From a virus: a DNA stretch of 64,000 nt. Shown here piece by piece: positions 29,003 to 64,000 of the stretch (the first letter of the stretch is position 1; each line of letters begins with the position of its first letter). The translations under genes and the position numbers were made by a program. The stretch covers positions 1 through 64,000 of the IMG/VR virus record IMGVR_UViG_3300027969_002881, one strand, 5' to 3'. The notes below the pieces were generated by a model, which saw nothing but the letters and a program-made list of their open reading frames with translations, did no database searches and had not been told where the DNA came from.

Positions 29003-29376
29003 TGTTTGGAACAGGATATACCGGAGGAGATCCAATGAAAGCACAAACACCTGCAAAAGGTATAATGTTTGATGCAGATTATGGCAATAGTAAAACGTAC
29101 ACCATTGCCTGCGATTGTCAAGATGGTGATCATCAAGTTCATATGTGGATTGAACTGAACGGAGATAAAGATACACAGGACATTGAAATGACATTCTATG
29201 TAAATACTACCACGCCCTTCTGGAAAGAAGGATTTAGTCGTGTTAAGGCCGCATGGGATATTTTAGTACATGGCTATAGAGAAGATCAGCATTCATTGAT
29301 CTTAAACAAACAAGCGGCATTGAATGTCGCTAGTACAATTACAACTGTAATAGAAGAATTAGAAGGAATTAAATGA
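29002..29376 (+). CDS. Hypothetical protein
   Basis: Contains CDC...H, possibly metal-binding. Confidence 0.65.
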
Positions 29377-47314: not shown

Positions 47315-47632
47315 ATGGCAATTAGGAGAAAGGATCGAAGTTTTGAAGAGATCCTTAAAGATGTGGTCATGGAAGAAGTTCCAATAGAATACATCACACA
47401 CATTCAACTAAAATTGAATGATGGGAATACTTTAGAATTTAGTCAAGAAGAACTATCGGGCATGAAAGATGCCAGAGAAGTTTTAAAGGCACAGGGACTT
47501 GAACATTTAAAAGAACAGGTACAAGACATTGAAGTTTTTATTGACAGTGCTAAAATCAAAGGCAAAGTTATTCAATATGTAAGAACTTTATTAACTAGCC
47601 AATTTGGCGATGAAAATGACACTAAGAACTGA
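47315..47632 (+). CDS. Hypothetical protein
   Basis: ORF from the track. Confidence 0.7.
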   Translation: MAIRRKDRSFEEILKDVVMEEVPIEYITHIQLKLNDGNTLEFSQEELSGMKDAREVLKAQGLEHLKEQVQDIEVFIDSAKIKGKVIQYVRTLLTSQFGDENDTKN

Positions 47633-48500
47633 AATTGATTTTGAAAAAGATACGAACTATGTTCCAGTATTGGATCATGGTTTTGTAGGTCTTGTTGACC
47701 ATATGGGCAGTGATAACGCTATTGTTCAGGCTGCTCGTGTTAGCTATGGTGCTGGCACAAAACAAGTTCAAGACGATAGAAACCTAATCCGTTATCTAAT
47801 GCGTCATGAACACACAACACCATTTGAGATGTGCGAAGTAAAGTTTCACATTAAACTTCCTATCTTCGTTATGCGACAACTTGTACGGCATCGTACTGCC
47901 AGCATGAACGAATATAGTGCTCGTTATAGTGTGCTTACAGATGAGTTTTACATTCCCGAACTAGAACAAATCCAAAAGCAAAGCACAACTAACAAGCAGG
48001 GTCGTGAAGATGCTGAATGGGGCTTTGAAGAAAAACGCGGTGTACAACATGCCTTCCAACGTAGCTTTCATAATGCTTATAAAGAATATGCAAGTTTGCT
48101 AGGAAAAGAAGACTCTGGACTGGCTCGTGAGTTGGCTAGAAGTGTGCTTCCAGTAGGCGGATATACAGAATTGTATTGGAAAGCCAACTTGAAGAACTTC
48201 TTACACATGGCTCGCTTGCGTATGGATCCACACGCACAATGGGAAATCCGAGAGTTTGCAGGTGCTATGTATGACTTGGTTAAACCTTTGTTTCCTGAAG
48301 CCTGTTCGGCATTTGAAGACTACGCTGTTAATACTGTCAAGTTCAGTGCCGGAGAGTATGACTTATTAAAGAATTTAATCAGCTACGAAAAATGGATTAC
48401 ATTAATTGAAAAATACGGTAATGACGAAAAAGCCCTGGGACAAGACGCAGGGCTTGGTGTTCGTGAACTAAAAGAATTTAAAGAAAAATTAGGTTTGTAA
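47610..48500 (+). CDS. thyX: Flavin-dependent thymidylate synthase
   Basis: AARVSY, HTTPFE, RHRTASMNEYSARY (ThyX motif), ARSVLP, HAQWEIR. Confidence 0.95.
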   Translation: MKMTLRTEIDFEKDTNYVPVLDHGFVGLVDHMGSDNAIVQAARVSYGAGTKQVQDDRNLIRYLMRHEHTTPFEMCEVKFHIKLPIFVMRQLVRHRTASMNEYSARYSVLTDEFYIPELEQIQKQSTTNKQGREDAEWGFEEKRGVQHAFQRSFHNAYKEYASLLGKEDSGLARELARSVLPVGGYTELYWKANLKNFLHMARLRMDPHAQWEIREFAGAMYDLVKPLFPEACSAFEDYAVNTVKFSAGEYDLLKNLISYEKWITLIEKYGNDEKALGQDAGLGVRELKEFKEKLGL

Positions 48501-49043
48501 CGGATCAATACTTATCTCATTTATGTGCAGATAAGCTGGTTGTTCAGTTAACCATTTAATATAATTGGCGGCATCCTGAATTGTAATTGTTTTACGTCCA
48601 GGATGTTTCTCTTGCATGTTACTTAAAGTACCGAAGCTAATATAGCTTACTCTAGGTCCTTCATTCCATACTCCGTTAAGACATAGACTATTACAATAGT
48701 CACGCAATGCTTTCTTTTCCGCATTGTATAACCAATCTGTGGCTTTCATTACTCTATCAGTTGTACTACCAATAGCAATAATATGAGTTTTCTTTCCTAA
48801 TGCTTTTAACTTTTTGTACGTTGCTTCAAGTAATAGTGTTTGATTAAACTTCCACAATGCGCTACATAATATAACAACATCATATTCATGCGCTGATTCA
48901 GAAAACCTCTGTTGCTGTTCTGCTTTGGTTAAATCATAACCACAGCTTCTACTTATAAAGGTAACGTCGTGTTCTGCTAGAGATTCTTTTAATCCTTCTG
49001 CTAGACCATAATTGCTATTGCCTGCTATTAATATTTTTTTCAT
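48489..49043 (-). CDS. Short-chain dehydrogenase/reductase-like protein
   Basis: ILIAGNSNYGLA and YNAEK (YxxxK). Confidence 0.65.
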   Translation of the reverse strand: MKKILIAGNSNYGLAEGLKESLAEHDVTFISRSCGYDLTKAEQQQRFSESAHEYDVVILCSALWKFNQTLLLEATYKKLKALGKKTHIIAIGSTTDRVMKATDWLYNAEKKALRDYCNSLCLNGVWNEGPRVSYISFGTLSNMQEKHPGRKTITIQDAANYIKWLTEQPAYLHINEISIDPLQT

Positions 49044-49753
49044 AATTCTTTCATTTTTTCCATATCATAATATAAATTAGGATCTTCATCCGGACAAGGA
49101 TTAAAATCACTTCTATTTATTTTAAATTCTTCTCCATTGATGATTCTGGTTAATAACTTAGCAAACACCAAATTATTTTCATCAGTGATGTGATTTTGTA
49201 ATCTAAGTCTTTCTAAATACATACGATTATCTGGAATACCAAAATGCTTTCTTTCTTCAACGTTTACGTAATCAAGAAAGAATTCTAATCCGCTATACTT
49301 CATAATTTCTATGTTCTTAGATTCACCTAATGACGGTAACATAATTAATTTTTTATCATTTTCAATTGATAATTTAACAATTTTTTCTATTAACGCTATA
49401 TGAACAAAATTGTCGAATTTAGAATCTTGTAAATGCAAATAATATTGTATCGCCGCTTTAAATAATTCTTGTTCTTTATGCTGATACGGCTCGCAAGTTT
49501 TCAATCTATATTCTACCGAAGAGAGATTTGGAATTGCTTCTTCGTGGTATAGTCTACCTGGGGCAGTGACTAAAAATACTATAATATCAAAGTTCTTATA
49601 ATTTTCTATAAATTTTAAATAAGAATAAAATAAACTTGTTCCTCTTCTGGCAAAATTTTCAACTTGACATCTGTTCATTGTAGATAGCAATGAACCCCAA
49701 CTTGTTAGACCAGTGCTGGCGGCATAGCTATCACCAAATATTGCTATTTTCAT
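49040..49753 (-). CDS. SGNH/GDSL-like hypothetical protein
   Basis: N-terminal IFGDSY. Confidence 0.5.
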   Translation of the reverse strand: MKIAIFGDSYAASTGLTSWGSLLSTMNRCQVENFARRGTSLFYSYLKFIENYKNFDIIVFLVTAPGRLYHEEAIPNLSSVEYRLKTCEPYQHKEQELFKAAIQYYLHLQDSKFDNFVHIALIEKIVKLSIENDKKLIMLPSLGESKNIEIMKYSGLEFFLDYVNVEERKHFGIPDNRMYLERLRLQNHITDENNLVFAKLLTRIINGEEFKINRSDFNPCPDEDPNLYYDMEKMKEL

Positions 49754-51063
49754 TTAAACAATCTTGTATATTCAGGTACAATGTCTAGTATGCTATGCCC
49801 ACGTGCATGATCTAGGTAGTTGGTAAACTTAACAAACTCTGGAAGTTTATCGCTAAAGTCTGCACCCAACATGTATTTTGTAATACTGTTTAAAATATTT
49901 TCTGCGTTCTTAGCAATATCTTCTGGATATTCTGCGTTGAACTCAGTGATACATTTAGCATAGTATTCAACAATCTGTTGTTTCATATCAGCAGGTAATA
50001 CACGCACATTAACACGCTTTGGGCCGTGAGCTACATGATGTGTAATGATGGGACGCTTCTTTGTGCTGTTAATCTTAGTAAATCCGCTACTGTTTAACTT
50101 CCACTTCATAAAACGTGGTATGTGCCAAATATTATATGCTGTTACTGTACAAGCCAACCAAGCAAGTATGTTTGGATTCTTTTCTGCGTATTCATCTAAC
50201 TTTTGTAAATTCTTGTATGCTTGATTCCACTTTAATGGCCAACGCTGATATTCAACTGTTTCGCCCATGCCATCCATACTGGCACCAACACGAACTTGCT
50301 TAAACTGTGTCCACATATCTAATACACGGTTGGGCAAGTTACTCATATTGGTATTGTATTCAATAATCATCTTCTTACTATGACCTGCATCAATACATTT
50401 TTGTAGAAACTCGTAGTGACGTTCGATCATCATAGGCTCACCGCCTGCCATATAAACGTGCTTGATGTTTGGAATGTTTGCTTCTATCTGTGTCCAGAAA
50501 CTTTCACTGTTATGCCAGTCATAGTCTGTAGTAGACAATCTACCATTATCATTACGAGCTAATTTAACTGTTCCATGCGTATCTTTGTATTCATCACTGC
50601 CATGATATTCAGTCCATTGCTCGTACCAAGTATGACTATCAGTAGGGCCACACATGCGGCAAGCAAGATTACATAAGTTACCAAAACGCAGATCGTAGTA
50701 TTCTAAGTTTCTGTCTTTGATACTACCATCTTCTTCTGTGATATAACGAGCATCATCGATGTTAAACTTCCAGTTTTCTAATTCATATTGTCTGCGACTA
50801 TTAAGACCACTAGCTTCTTCTTGTTGACAACGTCCGCACTCTTGACTCCACTCACCTACTAACATGTTCTTGCGAACTTCTTTCATTAGTGTAGCATTAC
50901 GGGCAGTTTCCATATTGTCTCTACCAGCATTATACGGAGTTCCATCTTCGTGTCTAACAACACCTTGGTTATCCGTTACATTGGCTTGACAACAAACTCG
51001 AATGTCTCCATTATTGCGAACAGCCTGGAAGTTCCAAGGTATCGGGCAAAATGTATTACTCAT
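49750..51063 (-). CDS. Radical SAM protein with N-terminal twitch/SPASM-like Fe-S motif
   Basis: FCPIPW...VCC...CGRC, CNLACRMC, GGEP. Confidence 0.9.
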   Translation of the reverse strand: MSNTFCPIPWNFQAVRNNGDIRVCCQANVTDNQGVVRHEDGTPYNAGRDNMETARNATLMKEVRKNMLVGEWSQECGRCQQEEASGLNSRRQYELENWKFNIDDARYITEEDGSIKDRNLEYYDLRFGNLCNLACRMCGPTDSHTWYEQWTEYHGSDEYKDTHGTVKLARNDNGRLSTTDYDWHNSESFWTQIEANIPNIKHVYMAGGEPMMIERHYEFLQKCIDAGHSKKMIIEYNTNMSNLPNRVLDMWTQFKQVRVGASMDGMGETVEYQRWPLKWNQAYKNLQKLDEYAEKNPNILAWLACTVTAYNIWHIPRFMKWKLNSSGFTKINSTKKRPIITHHVAHGPKRVNVRVLPADMKQQIVEYYAKCITEFNAEYPEDIAKNAENILNSITKYMLGADFSDKLPEFVKFTNYLDHARGHSILDIVPEYTRLFK

Positions 51064-52444
51064 TGATTCTTCCTTTATATTCTATTATATCCTCGAATTG
51101 TTTCCATAAGTCAGGTAAGTCTGTTCTAATATCTTGTCTTCTAATCTTGTCAAGATCCACCGTGTATTGTATAAAAATCGTTATTTGTTCGCTGTTGCAT
51201 TCTTCGTTAATTGAACCAATTACTTTATTATACATAGTATTTAAATCTAATTCAGCTTCATGAATATCTTTTTCGTCAATTACATTTGATTTTAACTCTT
51301 CTAGTAAATTATTTTTATGCGCTAATAATTTTTCTATATGAACTTTTTTAGAAAACAATGGAAATATTAAAGATGGCTTTAAAAACTTAGGATCGTGTAC
51401 AATATTAACCATATAATTTTTACTATCCCACCATGGCTTACCTCTAAATTCTTGTTGTAAACCAAACCACCAATCAATCATAATATGAAAATGCCAAACA
51501 TTATATATACTAACGCATGGAACCCATTTTACTATATATTTTCTTGTTAAAAACGGTCCTTCTCCATTTGCTTCATAATACTTTCCTGTATATTGTTTTT
51601 CTAACTTTAACCATTCACAAACAGACTCATTGACAGTAGACCATTCACTGGGATAACGTATATAGTCATTTACTTTACCTACACCGTCGACACTTAAATT
51701 AATATAAACTTTAAAAAATTGATCTAAACGTGTTAGAACTTTTTCTTTCGGAACCCAACTTGCATTAGTAAAAATGTCTAACGTTATTTGATCAGCCCTG
51801 CCTGACTGTATTAGAATATCTAAGATTTTAATAAAATTTGGATGTAGCATGGGCTCGCCGCCTGTGAACTTAATTTCTTCAATGCTAGAAAAATCTTCTA
51901 TATTCCATTCTTTTTCTATATTATTAATTTTAGTTACTTTTCGTTCTTTGTAATAATTACTTAAAATAGCATCATCATCTTCCCAAGTAGTGCTCAAATC
52001 AGAGCCACATGTTCTGCATTTTAAATTACAATAATTACCCATGGTAATTTCTAAATATCTAATTTCTATAGAATTATCTTCTGGAGATGTTAAATTTTTA
52101 TTGTTACGAGTCCAGTTTTCTTTTTCTCTAAGACTTTTAATTCTCCTACGAGGATTTTTGTAGTTGTTGTTAAATGCAAATTCTTCTTCTTGATAACATT
52201 TTCTGCATCCAGGAACTTTTTTATCCTTTAACATTGTTTCTCGAATTTCTTGCCATTCAGATGAGCCTAATGCAAAAGTAAATGAAGTATTTTCATCGTT
52301 AATATTAAATTTGTCAAATTTATAAGTTTTATCAGGTAATTGATAATCTACATGTTTGGTATCAAATCTGCAACAAGGTTTTATTTGTCCGTTGGGTTTA
52401 GTTTGTGCGTGTATCCATGGCAGGACACAAAAAGTTTTACTCAT
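51056..52444 (-). CDS. Radical SAM protein with N-terminal twitch/SPASM-like motif
   Basis: FCVLPW...PCC...CRKC, CNLKCRTC, GGEP; start likely ATG 52444. Confidence 0.9.
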   Translation of the reverse strand: MSKTFCVLPWIHAQTKPNGQIKPCCRFDTKHVDYQLPDKTYKFDKFNINDENTSFTFALGSSEWQEIRETMLKDKKVPGCRKCYQEEEFAFNNNYKNPRRRIKSLREKENWTRNNKNLTSPEDNSIEIRYLEITMGNYCNLKCRTCGSDLSTTWEDDDAILSNYYKERKVTKINNIEKEWNIEDFSSIEEIKFTGGEPMLHPNFIKILDILIQSGRADQITLDIFTNASWVPKEKVLTRLDQFFKVYINLSVDGVGKVNDYIRYPSEWSTVNESVCEWLKLEKQYTGKYYEANGEGPFLTRKYIVKWVPCVSIYNVWHFHIMIDWWFGLQQEFRGKPWWDSKNYMVNIVHDPKFLKPSLIFPLFSKKVHIEKLLAHKNNLLEELKSNVIDEKDIHEAELDLNTMYNKVIGSINEECNSEQITIFIQYTVDLDKIRRQDIRTDLPDLWKQFEDIIEYKGRINE

Positions 52445-53603
52445 AACTCTTGTCCCCAGGGAACAATGGCAACTTGGTGCCTGGCGCACGTTTTGGTATC
52501 TTACTGTCGGCACTACTCACACAACTTGTTCCACCGCAGGGCATAGGCTTGTCGTACAACTTAAAGCCTGTTTCAATATGCCCTAATGGCACTTCGCTAC
52601 AGCTATAACTACGCTTTACGGTGCCATCTGGCTCACGAATAATAATACTGCGATAGCCACTGCTACATTCCCAGCCGTGAAAGTTGTTAAAGTTAAACGC
52701 ATTAAAACGTTCTGCTTGGTCCATGAACCAGGGATTGCCATCTTTATCTACAAATTCAATTTGATAATGCGGATCAATATCCACTTGTTTCTTACGCTGA
52801 GTATCTGCTTTGTCAATCATAAATGTTGGCTTTGGGCGTTTGACTAGTCCAGACTTTAATGCCTTTTCTTCTGTGTAAGCACGTTGTGGCATACCATTGT
52901 GTAACTTAGCCAACATCTCAGGTGTATACCCATCTACTACTCTGCTTGCGGTTGGATCGCTTTGTGGCTTGAGTGTTACGTTAATACCTCGGTTATGAAA
53001 GTATAAACTTAGATCATATATCTCATTAAACTGCTCCGGAACCATGACCATGTTGATAGTTATCTGTGTGTCGTATTCTTGGCATAAGACTAGTTTGTCA
53101 GCAAACTCTTCTACCTTCTTATCTGTATCAACGTGTTCACGATGGCAACTTGCTGTGATGCTAGCACGGTGGAAGTTCTTAACTGCTGGAACATATTGTT
53201 CTTCAAACCATTTAAGAGGGCGACTCATATTACTGGTCATGTGTACGCTGGTATAGTTTGTATTGGCAGCATCATCATTTAAATGATTAAGGATATCAAT
53301 GTAAGCAGGATGGAATGTAGGCTCGCCGCCACTTAGACTAAAGTGGAAACTATTAAATCCGTTTTCTCTTGATTGACGTTTAATCTCATCTACTGTGTGT
53401 AGCATTAGTGGAGTAGGACGATGATCCTTTGTATCACTGCGAGCATAGGGCCAGCAATAGCTACAACGATAGTTACAGTAGCGTCCTAAGAGCCAAGATA
53501 CAGTAAACATATCGCGGTATAGCATTGTTCTCTGTCCAACTCTAACTAAGTCACTGTAAGGTATCTTAGTAAAGTCGTATTCACTGGTTTTTAAATCACT
53601 CAT
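52437..53603 (-). CDS. Radical SAM protein with C-terminal Cys cluster
   Basis: CNYRCSYC, GGEPT, C-terminal CSSG...SYSC...CGGTSC. Confidence 0.9.
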   Translation of the reverse strand: MSDLKTSEYDFTKIPYSDLVRVGQRTMLYRDMFTVSWLLGRYCNYRCSYCWPYARSDTKDHRPTPLMLHTVDEIKRQSRENGFNSFHFSLSGGEPTFHPAYIDILNHLNDDAANTNYTSVHMTSNMSRPLKWFEEQYVPAVKNFHRASITASCHREHVDTDKKVEEFADKLVLCQEYDTQITINMVMVPEQFNEIYDLSLYFHNRGINVTLKPQSDPTASRVVDGYTPEMLAKLHNGMPQRAYTEEKALKSGLVKRPKPTFMIDKADTQRKKQVDIDPHYQIEFVDKDGNPWFMDQAERFNAFNFNNFHGWECSSGYRSIIIREPDGTVKRSYSCSEVPLGHIETGFKLYDKPMPCGGTSCVSSADSKIPKRAPGTKLPLFPGDKSYE

Positions 53604-53829
53604 TTTGTTCGTATATAAATTTTATTTCTTTACCTGGTCCGACTTCACTGGGCAAGCCGCCATATTCTTTTACATACCAAGTTATAGCAGCCTTGTACCA
53701 TCCGGTACTATCGTGTCTGCTTTCCTTGTTAAACTTGTATATGTTATCGTTAGTAGCTTCCATACTACTGATAATTCTGGCAGCTTCTAATTGTAGCATT
53801 CTTAAAGGCATATTGTCAATATCAATCAT
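53596..53829 (-). CDS. Small hypothetical protein between radical SAM genes
   Basis: 77 aa, coupled to neighbours on both sides. Confidence 0.7.
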   Translation of the reverse strand: MIDIDNMPLRMLQLEAARIISSMEATNDNIYKFNKESRHDSTGWYKAAITWYVKEYGGLPSEVGPGKEIKFIYEQNE

Positions 53830-55031
53830 AGGTCTAAATTATTCATCAATCTAATTAATTTGTCAGTTTTCTTTACTGCTTGTTTACGCACCAAAAAATC
53901 TTCGGCTATTTGTTTGTAATCAGGATTATATGCTGCCGCTAGTCGTTGCTTCATTGTGTCGATGAATGTTATAAAATTCTCTTTGAAAACATGTTTGGTA
54001 TTACCTGCTTCTTTTAGTATAGCCTGTTCTGCCAGTTCTATATATTTAATATATTCTATCGGCAAATGTGAGATATCCATTTCATCTGGCCAACTGACAA
54101 AGTTACCGTACCATGTGAATTCTTTTTCTGGAGCATATAATTTGAATTGTTCGTAGACCCATGTAATATACAAGTGAAAACTTTTCAAATTAAAAATATT
54201 AATAGTGGGGCTCATTACAATTAATTCAGTTTTGGGATGTTGAATATATCTTTTAAAGTTTTCTCCGAAACGTTGCCAATCTAAACCATGGCGAAGACCT
54301 TCAGCATCTTCGCCAAACGCTTCATTACTAACTCCGATACCCCATGTTAGTTTACTGGTATCCATTCTAGTAATAACTTTGTCCATTAAGAATTTTTTAC
54401 TATTAGCATTAGTACATATTTCAAGTCTAATCTTTTTATCAGTTAATTTAGCTACATCTTCAATGTAATCTACCAACTCATAGAAACGTTCACTGGCTGT
54501 GGGTTCGCCACCTAAAAAGATAAAAATCAATTGAGTAGCAGTGACATCTTCTCGTAATATATAATTTTTAATCCAAGACTTGAAAATAATATAATCATCT
54601 TCTTTTGTAGAATCCCTAACAGGCAATCCTTCCTCTTGAGCAATTTTACTACTGCTATTTGGACTACAATATAGGCAAGCCAAATCACATGTACTATCTG
54701 TTTTAATTTCTATATAATGAACAAACTTATCATCGTCATTGACTTTGATTTGATTGTCTTTGAGAAAAATATTATCCCATCTATTGGCCCAATCTCTGTA
54801 TGCCGAGTTTCCTTTAGTATAGTCATCCCAACATGCATTACAATCACTGTGCGCGATGTTCTCCAAGCTTTGCTGCCTGCGCTCTTTAATTACATCACTT
54901 AGACTAATAAATTGTTCTGTTAATTTTTCTGGAAAACTATGTCCTTTTGCTTTACAGCAATGGCGTAGAGTTCTTGATTCGAAATCAATGTTTATATCAG
55001 TCCAGCTTTTGGAGCAGTAAGTTGTATTCAT
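53826..55031 (-). CDS. Radical SAM protein with N-terminal twitch/SPASM-like motif
   Basis: YCSKSW...HCC...CNAC, CDLACLYC, GGEPT. Confidence 0.9.
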   Translation of the reverse strand: MNTTYCSKSWTDINIDFESRTLRHCCKAKGHSFPEKLTEQFISLSDVIKERRQQSLENIAHSDCNACWDDYTKGNSAYRDWANRWDNIFLKDNQIKVNDDDKFVHYIEIKTDSTCDLACLYCSPNSSSKIAQEEGLPVRDSTKEDDYIIFKSWIKNYILREDVTATQLIFIFLGGEPTASERFYELVDYIEDVAKLTDKKIRLEICTNANSKKFLMDKVITRMDTSKLTWGIGVSNEAFGEDAEGLRHGLDWQRFGENFKRYIQHPKTELIVMSPTINIFNLKSFHLYITWVYEQFKLYAPEKEFTWYGNFVSWPDEMDISHLPIEYIKYIELAEQAILKEAGNTKHVFKENFITFIDTMKQRLAAAYNPDYKQIAEDFLVRKQAVKKTDKLIRLMNNLDL

Positions 55032-55034
55032 ATG

Positions 55035-55778
55035 TTATATGTTAACTATCATTGTTTCTTGTTTTTTATTAATAAAGAAACTTTCTTCTCTACCACTGCG
55101 TTTATAATGAGTCTCACCGTCTAAATATTCTTCTTCTATAGACGAATCTATACCAGCATATATATCTAGAATCTTTTGTTCCTTGGGTCCGATACAAACA
55201 GCAACGATTGCTTCAATTGGCTGTGATTTAAAATCGCTGCCAAACTCTTTGGCCAATAAGCTAGTAAATCTATCATTAAATAAAACATCTTCCATACCAC
55301 AGGCAACAAATGCTGTTCCGTATCCCAAATCTTCCGCTGTTAGTTGTGCGTATGTTGCGCTAATCATTGCGTCACGAACTGAGCCTTTGACCATGACATA
55401 ACGATCAGCTTCACTTTTGACTTCACTATAAACTCTGTCGTATACTTCTGTGCCATTGTTTTCTTTAATATCAACCATTTGATGCTCGGGGGCTGGATTA
55501 GTTACGTAAAGTAAAACTAAAGGTGCTTTGGTTTGTAACAGATAAACTTGTTGTCCTTTATCACCTTCACATGAAGTAATGTGATCACACAATTCTAATT
55601 TTAGTTGTTTACCCAAATCTGATTCCGTTAATGCAAAAACTTTGTAACCATAAATTTTGTTTTTACTAGGAGCACGTCTGGCGCTATCCAAAATTGTTTG
55701 TATATCATTTTCATCTATACTATTTTTCATTAAACGAGTAGTATGTCTCGCCTTGATTAATTTATTAACTGTTGACAT
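55035..55778 (-). CDS. Nitroreductase-family flavoprotein
   Basis: LIKARHTTR, ARRAPSKN, LGYGTAF. Confidence 0.75.
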   Translation of the reverse strand: MSTVNKLIKARHTTRLMKNSIDENDIQTILDSARRAPSKNKIYGYKVFALTESDLGKQLKLELCDHITSCEGDKGQQVYLLQTKAPLVLLYVTNPAPEHQMVDIKENNGTEVYDRVYSEVKSEADRYVMVKGSVRDAMISATYAQLTAEDLGYGTAFVACGMEDVLFNDRFTSLLAKEFGSDFKSQPIEAIVAVCIGPKEQKILDIYAGIDSSIEEEYLDGETHYKRSGREESFFINKKQETMIVNI

Positions 55779-55805
55779 TGTGGATCCTTAAATATTAAAT
55801 GCTCT

Positions 55806-55819
55806 GATAAATATTTAGT
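55806..55819. promoter_or_regulatory. Overlapping divergent late-like promoters
   Basis: GATAAATA on + (55806-55813) and ACTAAATA on - (55819-55812) in the only divergent gap of the window. Confidence 0.55.
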
Positions 55820-55839
55820 AAATATAACCTGGATAAATT

Positions 55840-56577
55840 ATGACCGAGCACCTAAATGACTATGGTATCAGTAATGAACCTATAGATAGCTTTTCAAAAA
55901 GAAATAGCTACCCTGCATCTTGCAAATACCCTCAGAATTTAGAAATACCTAGAGATGTCAATATGAATTCTACCATTCCATTTTTACCAATCGACGACTG
56001 GAAAGACACTGAAGATTGGACAGAAATGCATAGAGAAGCGAAGGCATTAGAAAAGCATTTTGTTCCTCACAGACATCATGAAAGTCACAGCGGATGGAGC
56101 AGTTTGTGTATACACGGTATCACTAGTGTTCACACTGAAAGCCCGCATACATATGGATACACCGACGACAATTGCCCCTGGAGATGGACCGATGTCGCTG
56201 ATGTATGTCCGACTATTACTAAATTTTTTAAAGATAAATTTGACTATAACAAGTATTTTAGAGTTAGAATTATGAAACTTGCACCCGGGGGATATATAAT
56301 TCCACATCGCGATACGTTGGATATTAATCAAAGCCATATTGGTCCTGTTAATCTAGCATTAAATCACCCCGAAAATTGCAAGTTTTACATGGATGATATT
56401 GGTATGTTGCCATGGACAGCCGGGCGAGCTATCAAATTAAACTTATACAATGTTCATGCTGTAGTTAATCACAGTAATGAGGATAGGTATCATATCATTG
56501 TTCACGGTCATATGGGCCCCAGTTGGAATGACCGTATATATCAAAATTATTTAAATTGGAAAACTGTATATGCGTAA
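55840..56577 (+). CDS. Aspartyl/asparaginyl beta-hydroxylase-like 2OG-Fe(II) oxygenase
   Basis: MKLAPGGYIIPHRD, HAVVNHSNEDRYH. Confidence 0.8.
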   Translation: MTEHLNDYGISNEPIDSFSKRNSYPASCKYPQNLEIPRDVNMNSTIPFLPIDDWKDTEDWTEMHREAKALEKHFVPHRHHESHSGWSSLCIHGITSVHTESPHTYGYTDDNCPWRWTDVADVCPTITKFFKDKFDYNKYFRVRIMKLAPGGYIIPHRDTLDINQSHIGPVNLALNHPENCKFYMDDIGMLPWTAGRAIKLNLYNVHAVVNHSNEDRYHIIVHGHMGPSWNDRIYQNYLNWKTVYA

Positions 56578-58036
56578 GACTTATGTAAATGCTCTTGTAT
56601 TTGACAAGAGCGGGATCGGCGTTGATGAAGTTGTAAGGGATAGCCTACGAACATTTTATAAAAGAAATTTGTATATTGATAAAATCGAAGGAAATCCTTT
56701 AGACAGTATTATAGAAGACACTGAAGATAAATGTTTAGAAAGAGCATCAGAATCAAATTTTGATTATCTAATTTTAACATGGGAAGGTAATATAATTGAT
56801 ATACATGCCTATCATGATGAGTGTATCAACTATATAGATACGTCGGGCGGTGACTGGTTAGTTGCTGGCCATATTATGGATCAATATCAAAATAGACTAT
56901 TGCATAATGATCCAAAGGCCGCAGAATGGGCTGACAGCTTTTGGTTGTTTCCTATTACTGCTATTGTAAATGTCAAAATGTGGGAGAAATTAGGAAAACC
57001 AAAATGGGGAGAGGCCATGGGAATTCAAACTGTTACTAAAGGAATTCCAGACGAAAGCTGCGTTCATGATAATTATACTCCTCTGTCATTGACTTTTAGC
57101 GATCATACAGTTTCCGCCAACACTAAAAAAGGCTGGAATATTATCAATACATCATTGTCCAATGGCATAAAAGTAATTAACTTAAACAACGGCATACGAA
57201 CCAGTCAAACTTATTTGTATCCTGAAAACGATGTAGATAGATACAACAAATATTGGCAATCATTGTACATGATGCCAAAGCTAACAGATCAATATAAAAA
57301 AGTTTTAGAAAAGATCTTACCCAGCAAATATCCTAGACGAATCAATGACATAACATGGCAATGTTTCATTCGCAATACAGAAAATTATTTTCCCGAAGAA
57401 ATAAATTATCCTGTTAACATTAATTGGGAAGAAATAGATACTATTGCATTGCCTTCCAGCGGATTTAAAGACTTTATCGTCAGCATGAGTAAAAATTCTG
57501 CTCGTAAAACAGTAGATGTAGTACATTTTGATATCATTAAACAATGTACAGAAATTCGTAGAAAAATAATAGAACGTTGGGATGGATCTAGAGAAACATT
57601 TTCTGACACATTATTAGGTATCGGCAAGGAATATAGAAACGACCCGTTACATGCTTTCCACATGAATTCAATGAAGGATATTATTGAAGCATATGAACAC
57701 TTATTACCGTTTTTTAACAGCGAAGAAGATTTAAAAGAATGCTGGCAAAAATTTAAATCATTTAAACATAGCTATATAGAAGCAGACTTATTGGACGATC
57801 CATGGCCAGCTATTAAATTAATCAACAATAAAAGACTTTATATTTGTTTAAGTGATATTGCAGGTTGGAGAAATAATATCATTGGTTATGGATATAAAAA
57901 CTTACGCAATGAGATTTCAGGCTGTATAGAGAAGTTACAGAATAAAGGTATCACTGGATATATAGATTATAAAGATCCAGGAACAGACTTACAAATGTGG
58001 CAAACATTCGAAGATGCTATCACGCATTTAAAATAA
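56570..58036 (+). CDS. Hypothetical two-domain protein
   Basis: C-terminal half resembles the N-terminus of 58038..60101. Confidence 0.7.
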   Translation: MRKTYVNALVFDKSGIGVDEVVRDSLRTFYKRNLYIDKIEGNPLDSIIEDTEDKCLERASESNFDYLILTWEGNIIDIHAYHDECINYIDTSGGDWLVAGHIMDQYQNRLLHNDPKAAEWADSFWLFPITAIVNVKMWEKLGKPKWGEAMGIQTVTKGIPDESCVHDNYTPLSLTFSDHTVSANTKKGWNIINTSLSNGIKVINLNNGIRTSQTYLYPENDVDRYNKYWQSLYMMPKLTDQYKKVLEKILPSKYPRRINDITWQCFIRNTENYFPEEINYPVNINWEEIDTIALPSSGFKDFIVSMSKNSARKTVDVVHFDIIKQCTEIRRKIIERWDGSRETFSDTLLGIGKEYRNDPLHAFHMNSMKDIIEAYEHLLPFFNSEEDLKECWQKFKSFKHSYIEADLLDDPWPAIKLINNKRLYICLSDIAGWRNNIIGYGYKNLRNEISGCIEKLQNKGITGYIDYKDPGTDLQMWQTFEDAITHLK

Positions 58037-58037
58037 A

Positions 58038-60101
58038 ATGACTAATAAAAAATATAAAATTATTTCCAAAAATATTGTAGCAAAAGGAAAAGGCATTCTT
58101 AACAATACTTGTATAAGGTACATAGGCCATGCCAGTAGTCTTTTTAGTTTATTTTATAGAGCATATGCAGATCGTCATTTAACATCACTGACTGACGATT
58201 TCTATGACAATTATAATTTTATTATATATGATAATAATCAAGCCAATATAGAAATGTTTCAAGCCATTCTGAAGTGGGATGGTGTTTTTGATCATGATAA
58301 CAAATATGATTCTACAGCATTTCATGCTCACTTAGATATTTTTAAATCTCAGATTGGCATTAGTATAGAAAAGTTTAATTGGCACGAAACGGTTGGATTG
58401 AACACAAGACATAATTTTTTAGATTTTAAAAAAGCATGGGATCACTTTAGATCTCGTCAGTTTAAATTCGTCAATATTGATATTATTAAAGAAACCAATA
58501 GGTTTATAGAAATAATAGATAGCCTAAGGCCTATAGGTAAGTCTACGCAATTTTTAAAATTAGATATATCTTATCATGATACACCTGAATACAAAGAAGC
58601 GATAGATAATATTTTACATAGAGTGTGGCTTAAAAACATTAAAGAATATCTTACTGTGGTAGAGCTATCAGACAAAGATAATAACCCAATCGAAGACTAC
58701 GCCGGTAAATTATATTCTGAACGAAATCCTTCTTTCTGTATTCTGCCATGGATGCATATCCAATATAAACCAACAGGGCAAAGTAAACTTTGCTGTAGAT
58801 ATGATATCGGAAATGAAACATACAAAGCTAAACAAGAACCAAATAGCACTGATAAGCTATTACAACTAAGCCATGTTAGAGAAGAGTCAATGATACAGAC
58901 AACTACCATGGAAGAAAGCTTCTTTGGAGACTATTGGAGTGCCGCAAGAGAATATACTGAAAATAATACTCCTTTAGTAGGATGTCATAAATGCTATAAA
59001 GAAGAACGAGGGAATAAAGGTGAAGTATCTCAAAGTATGAGACTAGGATCTGCTATCTTATATAACGGTGGACTATTGCACAAGCGATCAGAGTCTGAAA
59101 GACCTAAGTTAGAATTCTTAGAAGTGGGTTTCGGTAACTATTGCAATCTGGCTTGTCTAACATGTAATAGCTCGTTGAGCACGACATGGCATACTGATGA
59201 ATTAGAATTAAATCAAGTTGTAAATAAAAATATTAAACGTCAAGTGTTTAAAAAATTGGATAACTTAAAATTCGTTCCTAACGAAGAAACGCTACGTACT
59301 CTGCGTGTTATTAAATTCACCGGCGGCGAGCCTATGATTAATCCGGAGTTTATTAAGTTCATTGACTTAATCTGTGAACAAGGTAAGCCTGAACAAATTA
59401 GTCTAGAAATATATACAAATTGTAGCTATATTCCTAGCCCCAAGCTACTGGAAAATTTAGCTAGATTTGAAGCAGTTCAATTAAATCTCAGTATAGATGC
59501 GTACGGTCATGTCAATGATTATGTTCGCTATGGTAGCACATGGGAAGGTGATGCAAAACAAACAGTTAGCAATGCTATCGACCATTGGCTAGCATATGGT
59601 AAACAATATGAAAATATTAGCATCATAATGTCAACTACACTAAGTGTACTAAGCGTATTAGAAATACCCAAGTTAATGACATGGTGGATGGACAAATATA
59701 AAGATTCCGGCAATAAGATTACTGTCTTTAGATCTGGGCTTCTTGCCACAGAATATGATGGTTTCTTTAAATTGCAACCAGCACATGATCCTAGTTATAT
59801 TAATTTGAATATACTTCCCGCAGAATATTACAACAAAGTCCTGGACTGGGTAGAAGAGTATCGCAACAATTTTACTTTAAATTATCCTGATCTAGAAGGT
59901 ATACCAGAATGTATTAGTGCTAGTTTGCTCAAATTGACACAAATTATCAATAAAGCAAAAGGTAATGCTGAAGAAGCAACCAATTTATTAAATTATTTGT
60001 CTAACATAGACAGTATTAGAAAAAATTCATGCGAAGCTAGTATACCTGAAATAGTATCTAAAGTTAAAGAATACTTGCAAGCTCAGGGTACACCAACTTA
60101 A
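58038..60101 (+). CDS. Fusion: unknown N-terminal domain + radical SAM with twitch/SPASM-like motif
   Basis: FCILPW...LCC...CHKC, CNLACLTC, GGEP. Confidence 0.88.
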   Translation: MTNKKYKIISKNIVAKGKGILNNTCIRYIGHASSLFSLFYRAYADRHLTSLTDDFYDNYNFIIYDNNQANIEMFQAILKWDGVFDHDNKYDSTAFHAHLDIFKSQIGISIEKFNWHETVGLNTRHNFLDFKKAWDHFRSRQFKFVNIDIIKETNRFIEIIDSLRPIGKSTQFLKLDISYHDTPEYKEAIDNILHRVWLKNIKEYLTVVELSDKDNNPIEDYAGKLYSERNPSFCILPWMHIQYKPTGQSKLCCRYDIGNETYKAKQEPNSTDKLLQLSHVREESMIQTTTMEESFFGDYWSAAREYTENNTPLVGCHKCYKEERGNKGEVSQSMRLGSAILYNGGLLHKRSESERPKLEFLEVGFGNYCNLACLTCNSSLSTTWHTDELELNQVVNKNIKRQVFKKLDNLKFVPNEETLRTLRVIKFTGGEPMINPEFIKFIDLICEQGKPEQISLEIYTNCSYIPSPKLLENLARFEAVQLNLSIDAYGHVNDYVRYGSTWEGDAKQTVSNAIDHWLAYGKQYENISIIMSTTLSVLSVLEIPKLMTWWMDKYKDSGNKITVFRSGLLATEYDGFFKLQPAHDPSYINLNILPAEYYNKVLDWVEEYRNNFTLNYPDLEGIPECISASLLKLTQIINKAKGNAEEATNLLNYLSNIDSIRKNSCEASIPEIVSKVKEYLQAQGTPT

Positions 60102-61320
60102 AATCTGTGTTATTATGCTTGTCCATGAAGTTTATATAATTTGCAGTTTCAATTAATTCTGTCGAGTAATCTTCTGCATTCATATAATTAATCGCATAAT
60201 CACCGTAGCGAATAATCCGCTTCTTTTGTTGGTTAACTAGTCTAGTACTAGACCATTGTGTGTGCGTCCATAGCGTGGGTTCATCTAACGTTAATTTAAA
60301 CGCTGTCCACTCAGCAGTAATTTTATCTTTAATGTCTTTTGGTAACACTTTGGGATTGATTGCTTTTGGAAACTGTACTATGCTAGTATGGAACAATCCG
60401 CCTGCGTTGTTAACAAACTTAACAATATCAACAAGTCTGCTTATATTGTAAATGCTAATAGTTGTAGTCAGACTCATTTCGATATTTTTAAGTTCGTGTA
60501 ATTTTTGAACATTGTCTACTATCTTATTAATATCACCATAGGTTCTAAAGTAACTGAATGTAGTATCATCACCATCGATACTTACACGTAGAATAATCTT
60601 TTTAAACTTAGGCCAATGATCCAATACGTTATAGTAACCCAATCCCAGTGCCACTAGATTACTGTTATAACTTAGTGTTATGTTATGTGCGTGATCAGCC
60701 ATTGCATCAATCATTTCCCAATGACGCTTTTGTTGTAGAGGTTCGCCGCCAGCAATCAATACTTCACGTAGATGCGGGATGGCATTTTTAAACTCTTCAA
60801 AGCTACGTTCAGGCAAACTGATATGTTTCTTTTCTAATCTTCCAGCACCATGCTTGATAAAAAATGTTTTTACTTCAGGATCTTTAAATGCCAATACTTC
60901 CCATTGACTACTGTAAGTAGGACTACAATGTCTACAGCGTAGATTACAAGTATTATCAAAACGTATTTCAATGCTCTGAGGCTCGTAGGGCATTGAATAG
61001 TCTTCTGCTACCTTACTTACTACTTTGTCAAAATCAATATTATAGCTATCTTTATATGTTTCATTACATGTTTGTCTAGTACTAGCAACTCCGCTGTCTT
61101 CAAAGTCCCAGCAACTACGGCATCCAGTAGGACGCTCGTCATTTAATACAGCTCTACGAAGTTCTCGAGTTTCGTTACTGTTCCAAATTTCACTTAATGT
61201 TTGACTACGATAGTCTCCGATACGATCTGGATAACGCCAGCAAGCACCGACTTTGCCCTCGTGCTTGATGTTTTGATGTATAAAAGGCATTATACAGAAT
61301 GTTTTGCTGTCTTTGTTCAT
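60064..61320 (-). CDS. Radical SAM protein with N-terminal twitch/SPASM-like motif
   Basis: FCIMPF...ACW...CRSC, CNLRCRHC, GGEP. Confidence 0.9.
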   Translation of the reverse strand: MNKDSKTFCIMPFIHQNIKHEGKVGACWRYPDRIGDYRSQTLSEIWNSNETRELRRAVLNDERPTGCRSCWDFEDSGVASTRQTCNETYKDSYNIDFDKVVSKVAEDYSMPYEPQSIEIRFDNTCNLRCRHCSPTYSSQWEVLAFKDPEVKTFFIKHGAGRLEKKHISLPERSFEEFKNAIPHLREVLIAGGEPLQQKRHWEMIDAMADHAHNITLSYNSNLVALGLGYYNVLDHWPKFKKIILRVSIDGDDTTFSYFRTYGDINKIVDNVQKLHELKNIEMSLTTTISIYNISRLVDIVKFVNNAGGLFHTSIVQFPKAINPKVLPKDIKDKITAEWTAFKLTLDEPTLWTHTQWSSTRLVNQQKKRIIRYGDYAINYMNAEDYSTELIETANYINFMDKHNNTDFKLVYPELASIL

Positions 61321-62627
61321 AATTTGGCTTGTATGTTATTCCACCATTCTTGTAAAAATGGATAATCTTTTATTACATCTTGTGTTGTTGGATATTGATC
61401 AATGGTATCTATCTTTTTCGCATATGAGAATGCCCTGCGTATCTGTTTGACTCTATTATCATTTAAATTTGTTAAATCTAATTCACTGATATCTAATGTA
61501 GAATGTTGTTTAATTAATTCTAACGCAGAATATAAGTCATTGGCTATAGATTCTTTTAACTGCGATTTGTATTCATCTAATATTTTTTTAAATTCATCTA
61601 CCCATTGTTCTTTATATTTTCCTAGATAATCAAAGCATAGATACTTATTGTTATTGTTATGTTTAACTAATGTGATATCGTGTGTAGGTAAATCTTGTTC
61701 TATAATAAATTCTAACCATTCTTTAAATCCGCATAAAGTAAAGATTGTTATAGTCAGTCCTGAACCTAAATTCCTGTTTTTACCCTGAGCCTGTGATTGC
61801 TTAAAATGTTTATTAAGTTCATCAAAATTACTTTTCCATTTCTCCCAATTTAATCCTCTGCGTATATATTCTCCGGCTAGGCCGCCTGCTTCACAACTTG
61901 CATGAATATTAACATCTGAGAAAGGTTCTAGTAAATCTACTAATCTCGTACCTTTAAATTTAGTTATGCTAAGATTTGTTATGTAAGAAACCGACAAGTT
62001 AGTATTGTTAGTTTCTTTTAAGTAGTTCATAAAATCCCAATGCTGTTGCTCAAACAACGGCTCGCCACCAATCCATTGTAATGTTTTAAGTCTACGCTCA
62101 TCAGCCGCTAATATTAGTTCTTGATAAAGTAAATTATTTCGTTCATCTGAGTCTTCTATCGAATCATCGTGGCTTGCGTGTTCTAAATTATGTATGCGTT
62201 CTTCTAATTCAATTTGACTACTAGAACTAGAACTACAATGTCTACATTTAAAATTACAAGTTTTACCAAATCTATAATCATAATAAACAGGTTCAAACGT
62301 AGTTGATCCATCTACTTCTGTTTTTGTCATGGCATCATCATAATATTTAGAATAGTAAGTATTCCAATGGTCTTTAAATAAATTAATTTTATTTGCATCA
62401 CCTACAGTAACATCACATTGATGACAAGCGGCTGGAAATTTATTGTTCATTAGAGATGTTCTGATCTCTTTCATATACGTAGAGTTTTGAAATTCTACAA
62501 AAGTTTTTGCTGTTCTGGTATTCTTATCTGTGGGTATTTCTGCTGTACAGCAAGCCTTTCTGACATACTGACTATCATGCATTGCATGAACCCAGGGTGC
62601 CATACAAAAATTTTCGGGCATTGTCAT
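61317..62627 (-). CDS. Radical SAM protein with N-terminal twitch/SPASM-like motif
   Basis: FCMAPW...ACC...CHQC, CNFKCRHC, GGEP. Confidence 0.9.
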   Translation of the reverse strand: MTMPENFCMAPWVHAMHDSQYVRKACCTAEIPTDKNTRTAKTFVEFQNSTYMKEIRTSLMNNKFPAACHQCDVTVGDANKINLFKDHWNTYYSKYYDDAMTKTEVDGSTTFEPVYYDYRFGKTCNFKCRHCSSSSSSQIELEERIHNLEHASHDDSIEDSDERNNLLYQELILAADERRLKTLQWIGGEPLFEQQHWDFMNYLKETNNTNLSVSYITNLSITKFKGTRLVDLLEPFSDVNIHASCEAGGLAGEYIRRGLNWEKWKSNFDELNKHFKQSQAQGKNRNLGSGLTITIFTLCGFKEWLEFIIEQDLPTHDITLVKHNNNNKYLCFDYLGKYKEQWVDEFKKILDEYKSQLKESIANDLYSALELIKQHSTLDISELDLTNLNDNRVKQIRRAFSYAKKIDTIDQYPTTQDVIKDYPFLQEWWNNIQAKL

Positions 62628-63685
62628 TGTTTTAAAATATTTTCCTTGTCAAGATTGTTTGAAACATATAGAGTAGTATTTTCTTTACTACCGCAGGTAT
62701 GCAAACAAGTAATAAGATTTCCATCTTCTACAGTATTATTCCATTTAGAACTAATATTATACTGTTTATTTAAAATTTCGTCAACCGAATATATATTCAA
62801 ATCAAAATCGGCAAGATTGTAATTCTCATTGAGATTCCAAGAGCCTGGGCTATCATGTGTATGTGTACCTAAATAACAACAAGGCATTAATAAGCCATTG
62901 GCTGCCAAATATATTTCTTTACGTTCTAAACTTTTACAAGTAATTTTATTTTCATTTAGCTTTTTATAGTTGTTTATTTCAAATTTAAATAATGTAATCG
63001 GTACATGTTCTTCGATGCCCACATTAGTATGCCTGAATTGTTCATGAGCAGGAGGCTCCAATGTGAACACATGTTTGCCTTCTACCATAACCTTAAAGTC
63101 TTTTTTGCCTCTAAATTTTTGAGTAACTTTAAGTCTAAACTTAACGCCTAAGTCTTTGGCCAACTGTTTGGCCGTTTCAACTTGATGTTCATTGTGTCTG
63201 AATACAATAAAGTTCCATTGAGCATTTCCACCGGCCGCCACAAAGGCTTGTAAGTTAGCATAAACTTTATCATACTTAACACCAATTCTATATTTCTCCA
63301 ATGATTCATTGTCTGTGCCATCTAAGGCAAAGTTAATTAGTACATTGGGACGAGCAAGACTGGCCCACCAATCTTCACTGCGGTAGCCGCCATTAGTATC
63401 TATGCTAACACTTTTACAGCCGTTGTCCATTAAGTAGTTAACAAACTCTGGTAATAGTTTGTTTAAGCAAGGATCTCCATAAACCCCGCTGAAGTAGACA
63501 TGATCCAATTGACTAGTAAACTCTGGAGTGAACAGTTTATAAAATACATCTGCTGTTAAATCGCCTTCTGCTAAGTCCGGCTGCACGTAACCATGCCCGG
63601 TGTATCTGCTACACATAGGACATTGGCTATTACATCTACTACTAGACTCGACGTGAACTATTTTGATTTCATCGTAGGCAATCAT
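62624..63685 (-). CDS. Radical SAM protein with C-terminal twitch/SPASM-like motif
   Basis: CNSQCPMC, GVYGDP, C-terminal CKS...PCCY...CLHTC; ATG at 63685. Confidence 0.88.
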   Translation of the reverse strand: MIAYDEIKIVHVESSSRCNSQCPMCSRYTGHGYVQPDLAEGDLTADVFYKLFTPEFTSQLDHVYFSGVYGDPCLNKLLPEFVNYLMDNGCKSVSIDTNGGYRSEDWWASLARPNVLINFALDGTDNESLEKYRIGVKYDKVYANLQAFVAAGGNAQWNFIVFRHNEHQVETAKQLAKDLGVKFRLKVTQKFRGKKDFKVMVEGKHVFTLEPPAHEQFRHTNVGIEEHVPITLFKFEINNYKKLNENKITCKSLERKEIYLAANGLLMPCCYLGTHTHDSPGSWNLNENYNLADFDLNIYSVDEILNKQYNISSKWNNTVEDGNLITCLHTCGSKENTTLYVSNNLDKENILKQ

Positions 63686-64000
63686 TGAAGTCACCGTTAC
63701 GTAGTATATAAAAGAATGAATTAAGGTCTACTGTTAATACTCTATTGTTTCTATTGCCATACTCGATTACTGCTCGAATGACTTCAGGACAATGATAGCC
63801 AAAATCATCTCCGCATATAACTGGAACACCATTAAACTTTATCAATTCCTTTGATACGTTTTCATAAGTATGGTCTCCATCTAAAAATACAATATCATAG
63901 TTATCACTGTTCAGCGTCAGTGATTCTTGCTGAAATATATTTTTAATTAAATTAAAGTTAGCACTTTTAGAGACATGTAGTTCCCATACTTGCCTAATAG
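63669..64000 (-). CDS. Class I SAM-dependent methyltransferase (Methyltransf_24-like), 5' end truncated by window edge; not in ORF track
   Basis: Manual translation: ...NYDIVFLDGDHTYENVSKEL...VICGDDFG...CLR-stop. Confidence 0.75.
   Translation of the reverse strand, partial: IRQVWELHVSKSANFNLIKNIFQQESLTLNSDNYDIVFLDGDHTYENVSKELIKFNGVPVICGDDFGYHCPEVIRAVIEYGNRNNRVLTVDLNSFFYILRNGDFNDCLR

Follow-up and report, generated by a model that had tools for sequence, protein, structure and literature searches.

The 64,000-bp stretch of viral DNA analyzed here, hereafter termed the window, comprises bases 1-64000 of the 127,886-bp IMG/VR virus record IMGVR_UViG_3300027969_002881 (CheckV completeness 35%) and contains, at positions 48489-64000, an array of genes encoding radical S-adenosylmethionine (SAM) enzymes. 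Genes and their products are named after the first coordinate of the respective open reading frame (ORF). The original prediction, derived from the nucleotide sequence, had proposed eight proteins with a CxxxCxxC motif in this region, which were assigned to an assembly line for post-translational modification or glycan tailoring. These eight ORFs are present, each contains a single copy of the motif and all match the radical SAM model PF04055, with scores above its gathering cut-off of 29.5 bits in six cases. The two proteins scoring below, 49750 (27.7 bits) and 53826 (22.8 bits), both match from end to end the NCBIfam model NF033640 (N_Twi_rSAM, 'twitch domain-containing radical SAM protein'), which applies to whole proteins with a curated cut-off of 170 bits. 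The entire 127.9-kb contig contains 16 CxxxCxxC ORFs with 100 or more residues, every one of them within positions 49750-94441, and no protein scores above the NF033640 cut-off in control genomes, so that the clustering is not a product of chance.

Six of the eight proteins had been described as carrying an N-terminal cysteine unit ahead of the SAM cluster, and the same six match NF033640 over their full length (49750, 385 bits; 51056, 270 bits; 53826, 170.5 bits and thus a borderline member; 58038, 239 bits; 60064, 321 bits; 61317, 235 bits) and contain the FCxxPW, CC/CW and CxxC motifs. The description of a permuted iron-sulfur domain is accurate, but the domain is not new, since it is already covered by this NCBIfam entry. 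The remaining two proteins, 52437 (40 bits) and 62624 (34 bits), fall outside the family and, as proposed, contain C-terminal cysteine clusters (Cys 313/335/356/361 in the former, Cys 253/272/273/330/334 in the latter). In alignments of the ten paralogues of the contig, and then of 38 sequences, four N-terminal cysteines (C6, C24, C76 and C79 in the numbering of the 49750 protein) are invariant, and so are the SAM-cluster cysteines 131, 135 and 138, S143, the SAM-binding motif GGE207-209 of the partial triose-phosphate isomerase (TIM) barrel core, N239, S262 and R274. A serine following the SAM cluster had also been noticed and is found as the invariant S143, but in the form CxxxCxxC-x4-S-x2-(W/I) and not as S..(S/T)(W/I). 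Structure and literature searches identified neither a solved structure nor a paper for the NF033640 family, and in the literature nothing relevant on an N-terminal SPASM/twitch domain or on phage radical SAM arrays was found. Conserved N-terminal cysteines in some members of the SPASM/twitch megacluster have been noted, without structures, in the RadicalSAM.org paper (PMC9477430).

The identity of the N-terminal unit is most evident in the 60064 protein, where the full profile of the SPASM model PF13186 is matched by residues 9-71 (E 7.2e-10, 39.4 bits) and where the N-terminus aligns to C-terminal positions of the SPASM families TIGR04303, TIGR04311 and TIGR04082. Both results characterize the domain as a SPASM/twitch module located ahead of the barrel. 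In the 51056 protein, the same Pfam model matches residues 29-107 with 19.9 bits, which is below its cut-off. Whereas SPASM domains are defined by 7-8 conserved cysteines including a CxxCx5Cx3C motif, only four N-terminal cysteines are conserved here, which points to a single cluster and therefore to a twitch instead of a SPASM domain. A structure prediction of the 49750 protein by AlphaFold2, with a predicted local distance difference test score (pLDDT) of 93.1 and a predicted template modelling score of 0.90, places a cysteine, a β-hairpin, a second cysteine, helices and the CxxC motif in front of the partial TIM barrel, with the hairpin (residues 12-22) located between C6 and C24, and C76 and C79 at the beginning of a helix (residues 74-84). 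This arrangement agrees with that of a twitch domain, in which three or four cysteines surround a β-hairpin and a helix and a single cluster is bound, and the N-terminal unit is accordingly predicted to hold one auxiliary [4Fe-4S] cluster. A fold search with the radical SAM core identified anSME (Z 12.7), CteB (Z 12.3) and SkfB (Z 11.9, each over about 220 residues), followed by BlsE, DesII, viperin and MoaA, with no single match standing out. We also considered whether the N-terminal twitch domain and the C-terminal cysteine domains of 62624-type paralogues are permutations of each other. This idea was rejected, as profile-profile comparison yields a probability of 0.3% and hence no homology, the similar spacing of cysteines (C-x17/18-CC followed by C-x2/3-C) being a likeness of pattern only.

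Within the array, the most conserved member is the N-twitch enzyme encoded at 49750-51063 on the minus strand (437 residues), whose relatives with 68-94% identity fall into over 120 clusters. It is adjoined by the N-twitch gene 51056 (51056-52444, minus strand), whose ORF as listed begins with a GTG at 52513 and would overlap the upstream gene by 77 nt. Because the NF033640 match covers residues 25-471 of this listed ORF, translation more likely starts at the ATG at 52444 as judged from sequence, leaving an 8-nt overlap as found at the 49750/51056 junction. The following gene (52437-53603, minus strand) encodes the 388-residue radical SAM enzyme with four C-terminal cysteines (PF04055, 49.3 bits), which is not of the N-twitch type. 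A divergent N-twitch protein of 401 residues (53826-55031, minus strand) and a 436-residue protein on a long branch (61317-62627, minus strand), for which related loci give matches only at the level of paralogues, both belong to a phage-only clade. The 687-residue protein 58038 (58038-60101, plus strand) combines an N-terminal extension of 230 residues, which matches no family, with an N-twitch module at residues 231-672, and its orthologues in the related contigs G002-G004 are 697-701 residues long. The clearest SPASM/twitch signature is that of the 418-residue protein 60064 (60064-61320, minus strand), described above. The last complete radical SAM gene of the window (62624-63694, minus strand) encodes the 356-residue protein with a C-terminal cysteine domain (PF04055, 38.7 bits; phrog_21308, E 2.8e-23), which has paralogues in the island at 67571, 68244 and 72177.

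The genes interspersed with these enzymes had been described as encoding a short-chain dehydrogenase/reductase (SDR), an SGNH-like protein, a nitroreductase, an oxygenase and a methyltransferase, and profile searches bear out the last three. A nitroreductase-family flavoprotein is encoded at 55035-55778 on the minus strand (PF00881, E 8.4e-8, 33 bits), an Fe/2-oxoglutarate (2OG) oxygenase of the Asp/Arg β-hydroxylase family at 55840-56577 on the plus strand (PF05118, E 3.1e-12) and the C-terminal part of a class-I methyltransferase at 63669-64000 on the minus strand, the full gene spanning 63669-64301 of the contig (PF13578 Methyltransf_24, E 2.9e-9 for the full 210-residue protein). A homologue of the oxygenase with 38% identity lies beside radical SAM genes on a Neisseriaceae-binned contig. 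The assignment of the SDR is less firm, as the 184-residue protein of the last gene of the island (48489-49043, minus strand) shows a weak and partial match to the SDR family NF038213 (E 6e-8, 32 of the 300 bits required) and none in Pfam; the gene is convergent with ThyX (47604-48500, plus strand), adjoins the orthologue of 49750 in 14 out of 16 related viral loci and shares 62% identity with its counterpart in the relative G001. Similarly, the 237-residue protein 49040 (49040-49753, minus strand; present in 6 of 16 related loci) matches no family in Pfam or NCBIfam and is an SGNH-like candidate by virtue of an N-terminal GDS motif, while other genes of the island do match GDSL or DUF6071 models. 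Downstream of the oxygenase gene, which it overlaps by 8 nt, a gene at 56570-58036 (plus strand) encodes a 488-residue protein with viral clusters as its neighbours in the Atlas and without match in Pfam, NCBIfam or the PDB, which shows no meaningful similarity to the N-terminal extension of the 58038 protein. One Atlas cluster of 688-residue viral proteins containing PF05118 resembles the 56570 protein (score 0.84, to be taken as a lead only), and hints that oxygenase and 56570 protein may be fused elsewhere. The plus-strand trio at 55840-60101 constitutes an inverted block within the minus-strand island, and the convergent genes 58038 and 60064 share 38 nt at their 3' ends (60064-60101).

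As had been anticipated, the array continues beyond the edge of the window and reaches approximately position 100 kb of the contig. It is part of a cargo island of about 52 kb on the minus strand (48.5-100 kb) with 16 radical SAM genes, of which the eight found in the window constitute the promoter-distal third. Ten of the 16 are of the N-twitch type, nine of them above the NF033640 cut-off (the six in the window and three further) and the tenth at 150 bits. Within the window, the genes of the array are tightly packed, overlapping or abutting, with the only sizeable gap at 53604-53825. For the T4 late-promoter motif TATAAATA, 8.6 occurrences would be expected in the window, where two were counted, both outside the island. 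Sigma-70-like promoters and terminators are found at chance level. The G+C content amounts to 0.33-0.38 at 48-64 kb, the part of the island within the window, against 0.39-0.43 in the preceding 38-48 kb, in keeping with a separate history of the cargo island. The island lies directly downstream of genes for a baseplate wedge subunit (contig 110901-114368) and a 2,844-residue fibre-like protein and is encoded on the same strand.

Profile scans of the island beyond the window identified three NAD epimerase/dehydratases of the nucleoside diphosphate (NDP)-sugar type, an RmlC-FkbM fusion, a methyltransferase, a carbamoyltransferase, GDSL/DUF6071 proteins and a split thiamine diphosphate (ThDP) enzyme consisting of a transketolase-like pyrimidine-binding protein and an E1/ThDP protein, with many other genes lacking any family match. 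Four paralogues outside the window (74196, 74884, 75881 and 94451) form one family with at least 7,740 relatives and no Pfam model. Its AlphaFold2 model (pLDDT 89.8) contains an invariant DxD motif (D67, D69) and matches B4GALNT1, a Leptospira glycosyltransferase, SunS/ThuS and WrtF with Z 8-10.2 over about 140 residues. On the basis of this model, we assign to the family a predicted GT-A fold and regard its members as putative glycosyltransferases.

The contig originates from an uncultured jumbo myovirus of the kind of Agrobacterium phage Atu_ph07 and Sinorhizobium phage Phosso, as indicated by a family-B DNA polymerase that is closest to Phosso (48.7%) and Atu_ph07 (46.9%), by the baseplate wedge subunit and by the relative G001, which with 383,411 bp is rated a complete genome. 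All five related phage contigs, among them this 383-kb genome, carry 12-16 matches, and in those above the cut-off there are no internal stops. In G001, the island is found at the same place in a shorter version of about 24 kb with 13 radical SAM genes, and orthologues share 27-86% identity. Throughout the 16 related viral loci, the 49750 gene is constant and its neighbours vary like cassettes. The paralogues, which are intact and share 17-35% identity with each other, are old. The order of wedge, giant fibre or structural protein and radical SAM genes is common to the source contig, G001 and Atu_ph07. Atu_ph07 carries a cluster of four such radical SAM genes 3' of a giant structural protein (MF403008.1, 116.6-123.6 kb), each of them annotated as 'hypothetical protein', and their products show no BLAST-level similarity to those of the island. 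Phosso likewise has a four-gene cluster at the syntenic site. PF04055 matches number four in Atu_ph07, four in Phosso and one in RsoM2USA, compared to the 16 radical SAM genes described here. Neither a megablast search of GenBank phages with the region nor a tblastn search of plasmids yielded a match, and among 50,697 phage records queried by tblastn with proteins 49750 and 65869, only a handful gave distant matches, namely RsoM2USA, the Vibrio phages K566 and K567 and one marine virus contig.

Arrays of the same kind are also found outside viral records. Contigs binned as Parcubacteria, Bacteriovoracaceae and Neisseriaceae in metagenome-assembled genomes (MAGs) carry tandem orthologues of the 65869 (54-72% identity), 52437 (56-58%, in the Bacteriovoracaceae and Parcubacteria arrays), 72177 (44-46%) and 49750 proteins (37-44%). 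The Parcubacteria locus (G006:C2, about 822-849 kb, on a 1.27-Mb contig) is the cellular equivalent of the island found in the phage and consists of a single plus-strand run of 14 or more CxxxCxxC ORFs, of which seven encode N-twitch proteins above the cut-off. These ORFs are accompanied by GT1/GT4 and GT28 glycosyltransferases, a TagF-like protein, an aminotransferase, an aldo-keto reductase-ferredoxin protein, an AsnB-like protein and YrdC and Kae1-like parts of a carbamoyltransferase. Among 301 sampled Pseudomonadota, the N-twitch family occurs in three, and with E <= 1e-30 it comprises 7,632 clusters at 50% identity. In a phylogenetic tree of 34 members, the paralogues sort by orthogroup and not by genome, with one clade restricted to phages. 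Four orthogroups are common to phage and MAGs with approximate likelihood ratio test (SH-aLRT) values of 95-100, that of 49750 grouping phage sequences with three bacterial MAGs (SH-aLRT 95). The tree and its shared orthogroups thus describe an old and differentiated toolkit. About 30 of the 50 top-scoring representatives examined are fusions of two or three modules, reaching 1,203 residues with three modules, and in one of them (P0123), modules resembling 92864 and 91426 are joined in the same order as the two neighbouring genes of the island.

With respect to cofactors, a gene at 29373-30473 (plus strand), outside the island, encodes the SAM synthetase MetK (PF02773 S-AdoMet_synt_C, E 2.8e-59), which G002 shares and the complete genome of G001 lacks. 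It is possible that the phage MetK supplies the co-substrate of the radical SAM enzymes. Its family in PHROGs (phrog_1569) is listed as of unknown function. In G001, with its 13 radical SAM genes, an IscU/NifU_N iron-sulfur scaffold is encoded at G001:C1:16406-16780 (E 7.3e-54). No such scaffold was found on the partial source contig, and no flavodoxin was detected in the latter (G000), G001 or G002.

The gene context in phage and MAGs leads us to propose that the island probably encodes a pathway for the building or tailoring of sugars or glycans in which radical SAM enzymes provide C-H activating steps. The glycan part of the assembly line envisaged in the original prediction fits with the sugar-nucleotide, sugar-decorating and GT-A-fold genes past the edge of the window and with the glycosyltransferases in MAGs, whereas its peptide part received no positive support. 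From the position of the genes, we infer a virion protein of fibre or baseplate as putative target, in line with the virion components named in the original prediction. In such a pathway, SAM bound to the [4Fe-4S] cluster of the CxxxCxxC motif of an N-twitch enzyme would be cleaved to generate a 5'-deoxyadenosyl radical that would abstract a hydrogen from a sugar carbon. In the 2-deoxy-scyllo-inosamine dehydrogenase BtrN from butirosin biosynthesis, the auxiliary cluster has four cysteine ligands and an aminocyclitol is oxidized by two electrons (PMC9012708). The four invariant cysteines of the twitch domain suggest a related role, where they would hold a fully ligated auxiliary [4Fe-4S] cluster that, as proposed for BtrN, would accept the second electron, with a two-electron oxidation or a cross-link as net outcome. 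The resulting keto- or radical-derived sugars could be processed by the SDR epimerase/dehydratases, the RmlC-FkbM fusion and the split ThDP E1-like subunits, and further by the carbamoyltransferase, methyltransferases, SGNH-like proteins and the 2OG oxygenase, before the GT-A-fold transferases would attach the product, probably to a virion fibre or baseplate protein.

Several observations weigh against this proposal. No substrate was found for any member of NF033640. A distance of 15-40 kb separates the sugar-nucleotide genes from those of the window, and the related loci lack them within ±10 kb. None of the Pfam glycosyltransferase families, PF00535 included, matches on the contig, and the moderate Z-scores of the GT-A-like family extend to nucleotidyltransferases (Z 8.4-9.1). 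The similarity to BtrN is weak, with positions 5-76 of the NF033640 whole-protein profile aligning to BtrN residues 166-238 at an E of 2e-4 and a profile of the N-terminus alone giving only chance matches in the PDB. In the fold search, enzymes acting on peptides (Z 11.9-12.7) are level with radical SAM enzymes acting on sugars and nucleotides (Z 11-11.6). Finally, the MAG contigs may include mis-binned or integrated viral DNA, against which only the lengths of the 1.27-Mb Parcubacteria and the 160-kb Bacteriovoracaceae contigs argue.

The even outcome of the fold search bears on a first alternative, namely that the radical SAM enzymes modify proteins or peptides, either during virion protein maturation by anSME-like oxidation, epimerization or the formation of thioether or C-C cross-links, or in the manner of ribosomally synthesized peptides with post-translational modifications (RiPPs), with the sugar genes belonging to a separate neighbouring pathway. 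Most characterized SPASM/twitch enzymes act on peptides, the three best structural matches do so as well and the island adjoins structural genes, and yet we regard this alternative as unlikely. The Z-scores of sugar- and nucleotide-modifying enzymes lie within about 1 of those of the peptide enzymes, and a RiPP recognition element (RRE), PqqD or peptide-binding domain is found in none of the eight proteins (Pfam, E <= 0.01), although such a domain is not universal among RiPP radical SAM enzymes. In addition, the bacterial counterparts reside among glycosyltransferases, an aminotransferase and parts of a carbamoyltransferase, and no candidate precursor was seen between the tightly packed genes, where no systematic search for small ORFs was made.

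Still less probable is that the island yields an unattached small molecule, for instance a pseudo-oligosaccharide similar to aminoglycosides or orthosomycins, or remodels a host surface polymer during infection, neither of which would involve a decoration of the virion. Gene clusters for sugar antibiotics typically contain BtrN-type twitch enzymes, ThDP branching enzymes and both carbamoyl- and methyltransferases, and the presence of the island in cellular MAGs would be in accordance with such a function. Conversely, the position behind the fibre genes is kept in three phages, and the scanned proteins, many of which match no family, include no recognizable exporter or resistance gene and no scaffold-forming cyclase. 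A similarly low probability applies to the synthesis of an activated sugar for an anti-restriction hypermodification of phage DNA, for example on 7-deazaguanine or hydroxymethylpyrimidine, for which one could invoke the abutting ThyX gene and the glycosylation of DNA by phage glycosyltransferases (Pyle et al., 2024, as cited in PMC12619734), but which disagrees with the orientation of the island, opposite to the replication and nucleotide genes and continuing the direction of baseplate and fibre transcription, and with the TagF-like, GT4 and GT28 genes of surface-polymer type accompanying the arrays in MAGs.

Returning to a role in glycan tailoring, a wider generalization can be offered as a tentative and rather doubtful extension. 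Arrays of N-twitch enzymes might be the signature of a hitherto undescribed class of heavily radical-tailored glycans containing keto, branched, cross-linked and epimerized sugars, made by a portable toolkit of giant phages and of bacteria such as Patescibacteria and Bdellovibrionota, where the phage glycans would reside on fibres or baseplates and diversify like O-antigens. The paralogues might then each activate C-H bonds at a specific position and work in multi-enzyme assemblies, as suggested by the natural two- and three-module fusions; a complex prediction for the 49750 and 51056 proteins resulted in a score of 0.00 and is evidence for neither outcome. If the assignment to sugars is correct, phages and some bacteria would perform radical chemistry on glycans at a scale that has not been described before, and the enzymes would constitute a large untapped set of C-H functionalizing biocatalysts. 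The 16 radical SAM genes on a single phage contig far exceed the numbers in the cultured relatives that were checked (4, 4 and 1), and most of them belong to a large family of about 7,600 clusters for which neither a known substrate nor a solved structure was found. The smaller cluster at the same position in the culturable phage Atu_ph07 is a possible way in, which would probe the site and not the enzymes described here.

The array can be compared with several known systems. With the catalogued family NF033640 itself, the N-twitch proteins share end-to-end matches, the four N-terminal cysteines and the invariant CxxxCxxC motif. Whereas that family exists as a catalogue entry only, we find ten old paralogues in one phage island, including 58038 with its extra domain of 230 residues, an arrangement for which no precedent in phages was found in the literature. 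The type twitch enzyme BtrN similarly offers a single four-cysteine cluster site in the order cysteine, hairpin, cysteine and CxxC, and its action on a sugar-like substrate within a sugar-tailoring cluster resembles the context of the island; the reaction type may be common to both. In BtrN, however, the twitch domain follows the barrel, which it precedes in the N-twitch proteins, the similarity in sequence is marginal and the best structural matches do not include BtrN. The SPASM enzymes anSME, CteB, SkfB and PqqE provide the best matches to the structural core and the Pfam model that recognizes the 60064 N-terminus, but their SPASM domain is C-terminal, binds two clusters with 7-8 cysteines and serves mostly in the modification of peptides, in contrast to the N-terminal four-cysteine domain found here in proteins without an RRE. 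The nucleoside and deoxysugar enzymes BlsE and DesII match with Z 11.2-11.5 and likewise occur alongside NDP-sugar SDRs, methyltransferases and a carbamoyltransferase, in clusters that carry one or two radical SAM genes compared to the 16 of the phage island. None of the virion glycosylation systems of mycobacteriophages or the chlorovirus PBCV-1 uses, to our knowledge, radical SAM enzymes, and for the island a virion target is suggested by gene position. The island shares with these systems, which include the glycans of mycobacteriophage capsids and tail tubes (cited in PMC12619734) and A64R of PBCV-1, the presence of viral glycosyltransferases, putative in its case, adjoining structural genes, and A64R itself is found among the Foldseek matches of the GT-A-like protein of the island.

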